Source of the DNA: Escherichia coli
Lineage (GTDB): Bacteria; Pseudomonadota; Gammaproteobacteria; Enterobacterales; Enterobacteriaceae
NCBI RefSeq assembly: GCF_003334405.1
Contig: NZ_QOWM01000050.1
Strand: one strand, 5' to 3'
Length of the DNA stretch: 1,026 bases
The notes below the pieces were generated by a model. That model searched no databases. It was not told the DNA's origin and worked only from the letters and a program-made list of their open reading frames with translations. This document shows positions 49 to 909 of this stretch, in pieces. Every line of letters begins with the position of its first letter. Position 1 is the first letter of the stretch. Both the position numbers and the translations under genes were made by a program.

Positions 49-549
49 TCAAAATCTGTTCACTACAGCAGTCACCAGAGTTTCTAACTGTTTCGCTGTT
101 TGCTGACAAATATTAAGCGCATCATTAATTTCCTTTCTGAATTCAGGATCGTTAACAATACAAAATCTGTCACCACTAATGATATAATGAACATTGCGTC
201 CGAGTTTGTTAATTTCCGTTTTAAGTCTCCTGATTTCTTTAATCTCATCAGGATAAAGACAGACTTCATTTTTTAACAAAGACTGACGTACACGAATAGC
301 AATTTCTCTGCTCATGCTCATGCCGTGAAGGACAGCATTACGTTTAACAAGTTCTATTTCATGAGGGTAGAGATAAGTGAAAACTGGTTTTGCAGCCTCA
401 TTCTTAACAGGAATAGATACTGGCTTTGTTGGTACATCAAGAACTTTCATTTTTGCGAATACATTTACACTATCAACTCCATATGAAGCTGCATTTACTC
501 TCGCAAGTTCATATTCATCATCATTTAATCTAAAACATACATTTTTCAT
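49..549 (-). CDS. Hypothetical DNA-binding protein with tandem ribbon-helix-helix (RHH)-like repeats; 166 aa from the ATG at 547-549 (track ORF 49..624 uses an upstream TTG)
   Basis: Uninterrupted minus-strand reading frame ending in TGA at 49-51. In-frame ATG at 547-549 is preceded by GGTGA (554-558), a plausible Shine-Dalgarno. I spot-checked the track translation against the sequence (residues GMSMS at 310-324; C-terminal NRF at 52-60). The protein has repeated modules of a short hydrophobic strand followed by an acidic helix (VCFRLNDDEYELARVNAASYGVDSVNVFAKMKVL; VFTYLYPHEIELVKRNAVLHGMSMSREIAIRVRQSLL), each with a G-x-(D/S)-x-S turn typical of CopG/Arc/MetJ-type RHH domains. The gene could not be matched to a named family from memory. 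Confidence 0.6.
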   Translation of the reverse strand: MKNVCFRLNDDEYELARVNAASYGVDSVNVFAKMKVLDVPTKPVSIPVKNEAAKPVFTYLYPHEIELVKRNAVLHGMSMSREIAIRVRQSLLKNEVCLYPDEIKEIRRLKTEINKLGRNVHYIISGDRFCIVNDPEFRKEINDALNICQQTAKQLETLVTAVVNRF

Positions 550-553
550 TCTT

Positions 554-558
554 TCACC
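554..558 (-). promoter_or_regulatory. Candidate ribosome-binding site (GGTGA) for the ATG at 547-549
   Basis: Minus-strand sequence reads ...ctctatGGTGAaagaATGaaaaat...; GGTGA matches the 3' part of the AAGGAGGTGA consensus, 4 nt before the ATG. Confidence 0.35.
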
Positions 559-563
559 ATAGA

Positions 564-598
564 GCCTGCGGCAGGCACAGGCAAAAACATCGTTTTTG
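564..598. promoter_or_regulatory. Pair of inverted repeats just upstream of the RBS: GCCTGC-g-GCAGGC (564-576) and CAAAAAC-atc-GTTTTTG (582-598); candidate operator
   Basis: Both are perfect inverted repeats read directly from the sequence. The CAGGC motif occurs three times: once inverted (564-568) and twice direct (572-576, 578-582). They lie between the candidate promoter and the ATG, where RHH repressors typically bind. Confidence 0.3.
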
Positions 599-611
599 GA
601 CAATCTACTGA

Positions 612-627
612 AAATTGCATGCAATTT
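612..627. promoter_or_regulatory. 16-bp perfect palindrome AAATTGCATGCAATTT; candidate protein-binding site overlapping the candidate -10
   Basis: Positions 612-627 are exactly self-complementary across a GCATGC core. A perfect 16-mer palindrome is unlikely by chance in 1 kb (rough expectation on the order of 0.01-0.02). Confidence 0.35.
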
Positions 628-642
628 CTAGTGGATTGTCTA
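614..642 (-). promoter_or_regulatory. Candidate sigma70-like promoter for the RHH-repeat gene: -35 TAGACA (637-642), 17-bp spacer, -10 TGCAAT (614-619)
   Basis: Hexamers and spacing read on the minus strand. The -35 is a 5/6 match to TTGACA; the -10 is only a 4/6 match to TATAAT and lacks the conserved A at position 2. An alternative is -10 TATAGT (658-663) with a weak -35 TTTATA (682-687, 18-bp spacer). Neither is strong; this is a prediction only. Confidence 0.2.
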
Positions 643-777
643 TCCTGCATTGATTGTACTATATGTGGCGCTGTGCCTAGCTATAAAATCGTCGCTGCAT
701 ATGTCCAGATTTCGTTGCTGAAAGGTTCTTTCGTCTTCGACCATCTGGCAAACGTATAGCTGAAAGATTTGTGAAAG

Positions 778-801
778 AAAAAACAAGCCTGGCAGGGCTG
801 G
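778..801 (-). terminator. Possible weak terminator for the upstream minus-strand gene: short stem (AGCC/GGCT) followed by a T6 run on the minus strand
   Basis: Minus strand reads ...ccAGCCctgccaGGCTtgTTTTTTcTTTc (A-run 778-783 on the plus strand). The stem is only 4-5 bp, so this is marginal. Confidence 0.2.
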
Positions 802-806
802 GAATT

Positions 807-833
807 GTTACGGCTGAAGCCGTAACGCTTTTT
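807..833 (+). terminator. Intrinsic-terminator-like structure: 8-bp stem GTTACGGC/GCCGTAAC with TGAA loop, then GC + TTTTT
   Basis: Perfect inverted repeat 807-814/819-826 followed by a T5 run at 829-833 on the plus strand. No plus-strand gene is evident upstream, so its function is unclear. The same stem forms on the minus-strand transcript but is followed there by AAUU, not a U-run. Confidence 0.3.
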
Positions 834-860
834 AAGTCCTCGCTGCGCTGCGGGGCTTCC

Positions 861-894
861 GGCGCAAAGCGCCTCCCATGCCCTTACAGGGCAT
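861..894. repeat. Two adjacent short GC-rich stem-loops in the 3' region of the upstream gene: GGCGC-aaa-GCGCC (861-873) and ATGCCCT-tac-AGGGCAT (878-894)
   Basis: Both are perfect inverted repeats read from the sequence. They lie 16-49 nt downstream of the TAA at 910-912 on the minus strand. Neither is followed by a U-run, so they are more likely 3'-end stabilising structures or protein sites than canonical terminators. Confidence 0.3.
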
Positions 895-909
895 AAGAAA
901 CAAGGGCAA

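Follow-up and report, generated by a model that had tools for sequence, protein, structure and literature searches.

In conjugative plasmids of incompatibility group X (IncX), two origins of transfer (oriT) have been described, which lie within long inverted repeats, one beside taxC and the other beside the rep gene and ddp3 (PMC3402527, PMC3332091). The nick regions of MOBP-type systems share the consensus (C/T)ATCCTG(C/T), which usually follows an inverted repeat that binds the relaxase and auxiliary proteins (PMC3772185). No experimental characterisation of the oriT of IncX4 plasmids was found in the accessible literature. Here, we describe a stretch of 1,026 nucleotides from Escherichia coli (contig NZ_QOWM01000050.1; hereafter the window), which is 99.9% identical to E. 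coli IncX4 conjugative plasmids of ~30 kb typed MOBP/MPF_T, and in particular the palindrome AAATTGCATGCAATTT at its positions 612-627. The locus shares with the oriT-alpha/oriT-beta arrangement of R6K/IncX the two inverted oriT copies, the MOBP3-type relaxase TaxC and the accessory protein TaxA/Ddp1; however, the transfer genes of IncX4 plasmids share limited identity with those of R6K (PMC8725589), and the likeness is one of layout and proteins. The palindrome is probably the variable core of the IncX4 oriT inverted repeat, where it would form the site of the N-terminal ribbon-helix-helix (RHH) module of TaxA and thereby set the specificity of oriT. The location of the palindrome, the oriT architecture around it, its duplication, its pattern of conservation and its co-variation with TaxA can be read directly from the DNA.

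The perfect 16-bp palindrome reported in the first-pass annotation of the window was borne out and is the longest perfect palindrome of the window; its dyad lies between positions 619 and 620. Taken alone, without the repeat that surrounds it, the 16-mer is modestly improbable, since a perfect palindrome of at least 16 bp appeared in 90 of 5000 dinucleotide-preserving shuffles (1.8%) of the window, which is AT-rich. However, it forms the centre of an imperfect inverted repeat of 21+21 nt at positions 599-640 (42 bp), 18 of whose 21 positions are complementary; none of 1000 shuffles equalled this repeat, and the best of them reached 15 of 21. The last base of the repeat is followed at once by TATCCTGC (641-648, plus strand), so that the repeat lies directly 5' of the nick region. 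TATCCTGC matches the MOBP nick consensus, is unchanged in all 53+ copies examined and is also the octamer found in the nick region of RP4 (PMC3772185). The window hence combines a nick motif, an inverted repeat on its 5' side and neighbouring genes for a MOBP relaxase and an accessory protein, and, as judged from the sequence, the inverted repeat followed by TATCCTGC has the layout of a textbook MOBP origin of transfer. The nick is predicted to fall between G647 and C648 of the plus strand (TATCCTG|C), in which case the DNA to the right, on the hicBA side, would reach the recipient first. The position of the taxA-proximal inverted repeat and TATCCTGC differs from the oriTfinder-based annotations, in which an IncX4 oriT-like region was put at a different inverted repeat of 14 bp (PMC6287198) and the IncX3 oriT was not found at all (PMC6287198, PMC8636099).

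The architecture of the element is kept across hundreds of plasmids. Copies from plasmids and metagenomes were aligned; a scan of metagenomes with a 16-mer of the nick region gave many chance matches from soil and marine samples, which were removed by requiring an outer arm. IncX4-type variants all share, without any change, the outer arms GGACAATC (598-605) and GATTGTC (634-640) and the stretch GTCTATCCTGCATTG. Between the arms, the core takes the forms AAATTGCATGCAATTT, AAATTGGTACCAATTT, (G/A)AATGGTACCATTT, AAATGTTAACATTT, AAATGTATACATTT, AAAATGCTAGCATTTT, GAATGATATCATTC and AAAATGGTCCCATTTT, with GCATGC, GGTACC, GTTAAC, GTATAC, GCTAGC, GATATC or GGTCCC at its centre, and this varying core is almost always still a perfect palindrome. 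In all variants of the IncX4 type, 28 nt separate the dyad from the predicted nick. In three distant relatives, among them an IncX3 plasmid, whose TaxA proteins are 24-30% identical, the large repeats differ, and a small palindrome (AATGCTAGCATT, TGTGCACA or GACGTC) is found 28-29 nt from CCTATCCTG|CAT. Two of these three (L022 and L023) carry the small palindrome away from the centre, in the loop of the big repeat. As the spacing to the nick is fixed regardless of the geometry of the stem, the palindrome seems to be a positioned protein site rather than an extension of the stem.

Which protein would occupy this site is indicated by the genes that change together with the core. The first-pass annotation had considered a dimeric DNA-binding protein, either the product of the RHH-repeat gene, which is TaxA/Ddp1, or the RHH protein encoded just upstream, which is the HicB-family antitoxin. 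Pairs of TaxA and core were drawn from plasmids, metagenome contigs and gene-context look-ups. The core tracks the beta-strand of the N-terminal RHH module of TaxA (residues 3 and 5), not TaxC or HicB, and this co-variation supports TaxA as the binding protein. One plasmid (L015) encodes a TaxC that is 100% identical to that of the window, yet its core is GGTACC and its TaxA differs at the N-terminus; another (L014) encodes the other type of TaxC (94.6% identical), yet it combines the TaxA N-terminus of the window with the GCATGC core. Plasmids whose cores are of three different kinds all encode the same HicB (WP_000681613.1), and HicB was rejected as the binder of the palindrome. The residues N-V-C at positions 3-5 of TaxA go with the centre GCATGC in two independent backgrounds, Q-(I/V)-K with GGTACC in four, and M-I-A with GTTAAC, the combination of the mcr-1 epidemic IncX4 lineage, in two. 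Single backgrounds link E-V-K to GGTCCC, Q-I-M to GCTAGC and Q-I-L to GATATC (P0021), and the distant relatives have Q-V-N, Y-V-N and K-V-Q with GCTAGC, GTGCAC and GACGTC-type centres. Before one further TaxA (P0022) was added, positions 3 and 5 were the only ones of the 166 residues of TaxA that were uniform within each core class and differed between the classes with several members. With this TaxA counted, position 3 retains zero within-class entropy and position 5 accounts for 1.93 of 2.35 bits, being non-uniform in the GCTAGC class; both are still the cleanest predictors of the core class. An advance prediction, namely that Q-V-K in a fourth background would go with GGTACC, held. As a control for linkage, the distal copy of oriT, which lies 7 kb from taxA, was inspected; it shares the core of the proximal copy in 8 of 8 plasmids and contigs, and in L021 the spacers of the two copies differ and the core is common to both.

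TaxA (ddp1; positions 49-549, minus strand) is annotated as a relaxosome accessory protein and matches the NCBIfam equivalog DDP1 with 234.9 bits. The protein is predicted to contain two RHH modules in tandem (approximately residues 2-37 and 55-91), followed by a C-terminal helical hairpin. Residues 1-59 are hypervariable, residues 60-100 are invariant, and residues 101-166 occur as two types that follow TaxC. Pfam gave a weak match to Arc (residues 55-94; independent E-value 0.0025) and weak NikA-like matches, which are faint in homologues. When the two modules are compared, the N-terminal one matches the second in register (hhalign probability 86%, E = 5e-6), and the AlphaFold model (mean confidence score pLDDT 74) shows an extended strand-helix-turn-helix twice and then a long helical hairpin. 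The first strand has hydrophobic residues at positions 4, 6 and 8, the invariant R7 and variable polar residues at positions 3 and 5, an alternation that is expected if residues 3, 5 and 7 face the DNA. A search of the PDB with a TaxA sequence profile gave only matches with E of about 0.5; a Foldseek search with the full-length model gave no significant fold match in the PDB, and the C-terminal coiled-coil dominated the matches. The type of residues 101-166 (window 49-249) goes with the class of TaxC (100/99.8% versus 94.6% identity), independently of the N-terminal module; this co-occurrence is compatible with a contact between TaxA and TaxC or with simple linkage.

A search of the replicon for further copies, which the first-pass annotation had suggested, showed that the palindrome is present exactly twice on the plasmid and that the second copy is inverted and lies 7 kb away. 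The duplicated unit comprises ~92 bp (561-652); positions 561-666 of the window correspond to positions 9659-9764 of NZ_CP070012.1 in inverted orientation, and both copies are alike except for one indel. The distal copy is found beside rep, bis and ddp3, beyond the rep gene, and 18 bp separate it from a downstream DUF2726 gene with a weak DDP3 match. This gene (NZ_CP070012.1 9782-10309, L002) reaches 28.9 bits with the NCBIfam model DDP3, below its cut-off of 140, and it sits relative to the distal copy as taxA sits relative to the proximal one. Since the geometry is the same at both genes, the repeat could provide them with shared regulatory signals. Paired inverted copies were also found in four more complete IncX4 plasmids and in three metagenome contigs. 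Short-read contigs often stop 40-68 nt upstream of taxA, within the duplicated repeat (L147, L148, L151, L153, L154), as is expected where assemblers break at an inverted duplicate; the cores of these contigs could not be read. If assemblies break at the repeat in this way, IncX oriT cores will often be absent from draft assemblies.

The repeat is also found far beyond the large conjugative plasmids. A sensitive search detected it in 771 plasmid records, 288 of which are typed as non-mobilizable. Many carriers are Col-type plasmids of 1.4-4.2 kb, including the unrelated replicons Col(MG828) and Col(BS512), whose block of inverted repeat and nick motif is 89-97% identical to that of the window and which lack genes for TaxA and TaxC. 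Across 5,426 complete genomes of E. coli, the block of the window type occurs at 76 places, all on plasmids and none chromosomal; among these are 15 records of IncX4 size and 45 small ones. This distribution rules out a generic repeat, a miniature inverted-repeat transposable element or a chromosomal element. The first-pass annotation had allowed for a widespread repeat element unrelated to the neighbouring gene; the palindrome does belong to a repeated element, but one that appears functionally tied to taxA. On some tiny plasmids without a relaxase (L004, 2101 bp; L005, 4237 bp), oriT is present in two or three copies whose cores differ, as it is on several metagenome contigs (L050, L053, L061, L101, L131); the combinations include GCATGC with GTTAAC and GGTACC with the ACGTGTTAACGTT type. 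These plasmids seem to gather keys that fit different TaxA types of IncX4. On Col(MG828)-like metagenome plasmids of ~1.5 kb, the commonest core is AGGGGCTACGTGTTAACGTTCTGACCAT, which was not seen beside any taxA.

Several points weigh against TaxA reading the core. The sample comprises ~14 distinct TaxA sequences, which are phylogenetically related. A second advance prediction failed: a TaxA with Q-I-L in a second background (P0022) has the centre GCTAGC and not GATATC, as seen with Q-I-L in P0021. Residues 3 and 5 are hence not sufficient determinants, and a complete code of these two residues is ruled out. The co-variation could partly be linkage within one recombination block, as only ~65 bp lie between the core and the start of taxA, and gene conversion between the repeats could keep the cores of both copies alike. 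The RHH fold of the N-terminal module, which is predicted from weak profile matches, an internal repeat and a model of medium confidence, is reasonable but not firm. Finally, of ~43 complete genomes that contain a tiny plasmid of the GCATGC type, none harbours a GCATGC-type IncX4 plasmid as well. Hitch-hiking of the tiny plasmids is thus not supported by co-residence; transient helpers or helpers of another type stay compatible with this result.

The binding of TaxA, the exact position of the nick, the role of the hairpin and the autoregulation are steps that we infer, and a possible course of events is as follows. A dimer of the N-terminal RHH module of TaxA (Ddp1) would place its two-stranded beta-sheet in the major groove of the palindrome, and the central base pairs might be read by residues 3 and 5 of the strand. 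The invariant flanks and the relaxase would be held by the second RHH, which is invariant, together with the helical C-terminal module. By positioning or distorting the DNA, TaxA would enable TaxC to cut the plus strand 28 nt from the dyad, at TATCCTG|C. Once the DNA has been transferred, the repeat of 42 nt could form a hairpin beside the nick sequence for termination. The core and TaxA would then form a lock and key, which chooses the oriT that is processed by a given IncX4 relaxosome. As the site lies between or over candidate promoters of taxA, binding of TaxA might in addition feed back on the expression of taxA and taxC.

A different role would be purely structural: the palindrome might only lengthen a stem, as a hairpin or cruciform, that is seen by TaxC on single-stranded DNA, and TaxA would not read the sequence. 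Relaxases of the MOBP, MOBQ and MOBF families recognise an inverted-repeat hairpin 5' of the nick site (nic), and a change on one side of the core always has its counterpart on the other arm. As single-stranded DNA, the 42-nt repeat forms a stable fold; the region 560-660 is predicted to form three hairpins with -21.3 kcal/mol (z = -4.9), and the nick motif stays unpaired. However, drift would not bring the same centre and the same residues of the TaxA strand together repeatedly in independent backgrounds, as is seen four times for Q-x-K and GGTACC and twice for N-V-C and GCATGC. Where the palindrome lies in the loop, as in L022 and L023, it cannot extend the stem, yet it is found 28-29 nt from nic. 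The core is moreover independent of the type of TaxC. If its sequence were irrelevant, it would be pointless for tiny plasmids to carry two or three copies of oriT whose main difference is the core. In a hairpin, the central bases of a perfect palindrome form the tip and cannot pair in any case. A hairpin function alone thus seems improbable as the reason for the palindrome.

The first-pass annotation had favoured an operator, and the palindrome indeed lies 63-78 nt upstream of the taxA ATG. Read from the sequence, a candidate sigma-70 promoter P2 (614-642, minus strand) consists of the -35 element TAGACA (642-637), a 17-nt spacer and the -10 element TGCAAT (619-614), and the latter is located inside the palindrome, as had been noted before. 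P2 was missed by the consensus scan, its second hexamer having no A at position 2. Most core variants have a TAnnAT-like hexamer 16-17 nt from the invariant TAGACA. A second candidate, P1 (TTTATA-18-TATAGT; 658-687, minus strand), was found by the consensus scan outside the repeat, on the nick-distal side; it would read through oriT towards taxA and is present only at the taxA-proximal copy. Bound TaxA would occlude P2 or act as a roadblock to transcripts from P1, and autoregulation of taxA-taxC is plausible. Accessory proteins of the TrwA type process oriT and repress their own operon, and the second copy has the same geometry upstream of ddp3. An RHH repressor that shuts the taxA-taxC promoter by covering the -10 element and that has no role in transfer is nevertheless decidedly hard to reconcile with other findings: the palindrome and the nick motif are kept on tiny plasmids without taxA, taxC and ddp3, so that the block cannot be an operator of taxA only. 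The palindrome also keeps its fixed distance of 28 nt from the relaxase nick motif in all variants and lies within the element that is called oriT in the literature, and the conservation of TAGACA, which is part of the invariant nick region, is explained without any promoter. As the exclusive explanation, the operator is therefore unlikely. The site is probably not primarily a promoter operator but the centre of the oriT repeat, beside the MOBP nick motif and duplicated; an operator role as a function added to that in oriT has perhaps an even chance.

Still less probable is a replication element, in which the repeat would be part of alpha/beta origins like those of R6K and would act in initiation or in distortion of the DNA. 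The two copies flank the rep gene; however, the nick motif, the relaxase operon next door and the presence of the repeat on Col(MG828) and Col(BS512) replicons point to transfer, which makes this alternative very unlikely, although replication and transfer roles of the repeat are not mutually exclusive. A chance palindrome, to which the frequency of perfect 16-mers in shuffled sequences might point, or an operator of the neighbouring HicB, which has a DNA-binding C-terminal domain by annotation, is effectively refuted by the extended repeat that was unmatched in 1000 shuffles, the exact second copy on the same plasmid, the architecture kept across hundreds of plasmids and the identical HicB beside differing cores.

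Around the oriT repeat with its variable core, the gene order is taxC-taxA(ddp1)-hicB, and all three genes are encoded on the minus strand of the window. The 5' end of taxC, which encodes a MOBP (MOBP3-type) relaxase according to annotation, MOB-suite typing and the literature (PMC3394729), occupies positions 1-37, with its start codon at 37-35. The 3' part of hicB (910-1026) lies outside the oriT element. Between the repeat and taxA, there are two smaller symmetric elements. The first is the inverted repeat CAAAAAC-ATC-GTTTTTG (582-598), which forms a hairpin in the single-stranded fold; its arms are kept and its loop of 3-4 nt differs by variant (ATC, CCT, ATT, CCC, CTC or TAT). The second is the palindrome GCCTGC-G-GCAGGC (564-576) within the conserved motif AGAGCCTGCGGCAGGCAC beside the taxA ribosome-binding site; the motif around GCCTGCGGCAGGC at this place is kept even in distant IncX relatives, as GAACCGACTGTAGGTCAC at the equivalent position. 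Both are candidates for binding by TaxC or by the second RHH of TaxA, which is invariant. SphI, KpnI and HpaI sites at the hexamer centres were judged irrelevant, as every 6-bp palindrome is a potential restriction site. An Rfam search of the window gave nothing relevant, one sub-threshold match to a snoRNA being the only hit.

Between the predicted nick and the hicB stop, there is a GC-rich non-coding block of ~110 bp (788-895, plus strand), which covers roughly the first 150-250 nt of the predicted leading strand. It is nearly identical in L022 and L023, whose TaxA is only 25-30% identical, and partly kept in IncX3. As single-stranded DNA, the block is predicted to form 4-5 hairpins with -36.5 kcal/mol (z = -3.5), and Rfam gave no match; it may be an element for single-strand initiation or a single-strand promoter.

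The start of taxA is the ATG at position 549 in RefSeq and in all homologues. The TTG at 624-622, which had been used as a start in the first-pass annotation, does open the mechanically called open reading frame 49..624, but it is an artefact. In several records (P0001, P0002, P0011, P0016, L016), Ddp1/TaxA carries an N-terminal extension of 10-28 residues, which is translated oriT repeat; examples are the 191-residue frame starting at TTG in the window and the 194-residue proteins of P0011 and P0016. Such extended starts (window region 550-624) are probably annotation artefacts. The mcr-1 IncX4 plasmid pGDZJ003-1-MCR-1 (L017/L019) has a partial tandem duplication of ~42 bp between taxA and oriT, in which AAACATCGTTTTTGGACAAT is followed by AGCCTGCGGCAGGC again; a hypothetical coding sequence of 48 residues is annotated across it, and the distance from the taxA ATG to the nick motif is increased from 91 to 133 nt.

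That an RHH accessory protein reads an oriT repeat is a well-known general principle, and the general kind of the element, a MOBP/IncX origin with a site for an RHH accessory protein, is already known; the lock-and-key variation is, as far as found, apparently undescribed, and no description of a variable palindromic core tied to the strand of TaxA was found in the accessible literature. Pinning oriT to this repeat would allow a better annotation of IncX4 plasmids and would explain the block on hundreds of tiny 'non-mobilizable' plasmids, and the apparent pairing of core and TaxA would provide a testable handle on which plasmids mobilise which. It is tempting to go further and to regard the core and residues 3 and 5 of TaxA as a diversifying, nearly modular lock and key that splits IncX4 into oriT-specificity groups, with tiny plasmids collecting several locks; this wider proposal is tentative and stands somewhat below an even chance. 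If this holds, two amino-acid substitutions together with a 4-bp swap could re-programme the specificity of oriT, and tiny plasmids without a relaxase that carry several locks could be mobilised by more than one IncX4 group.

Beyond IncX, the closest parallels are found among accessory proteins of other conjugation systems and among RHH repressors. TraJ of RP4 (IncP) and NikA of R64 (IncI1) bind one arm of the oriT repeat. As in the IncX4 locus, the inverted repeat of RP4 and R64 lies immediately 5' of (C/T)ATCCTG(C/T) and provides sites for the relaxase and auxiliaries (PMC3772185). Their accessory proteins are small and of the RHH type, as is predicted for TaxA, although the NikA-like Pfam matches of TaxA homologues are weak to faint. 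In contrast to RP4 and R64, the predicted site of IncX4 is a separate symmetric palindrome at a fixed distance of 28 nt from nic and the origin is duplicated, and TaxA, which is predicted to combine two RHH modules with an additional helical domain, stays below Pfam significance for NikA-like proteins. In the systems of TraY and TraM of F-like plasmids and of TrwA of R388, the RHH accessory protein binds oriT, helps the relaxase and can repress its own operon, and variants of the accessory protein match variant binding sites. The same logic of allele-matched oriT recognition and autoregulation would apply to TaxA, a comparison that draws on general knowledge; however, these systems employ MOBF relaxases and their sites are not one central palindrome, whereas the specificity of IncX4 appears to be confined to ~4-6 bp and two residues of the strand. 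MetJ, Arc and CopG are known to recognise short palindromic boxes with a beta-sheet of two-fold symmetry, in which alternate residues of the strand read the DNA. The strand of TaxA shows the same alternation, with variable polar residues 3 and 5, the invariant R7 and hydrophobic residues 4, 6 and 8. These proteins are transcriptional repressors, whereas the context of TaxA is primarily the processing of DNA for conjugation.

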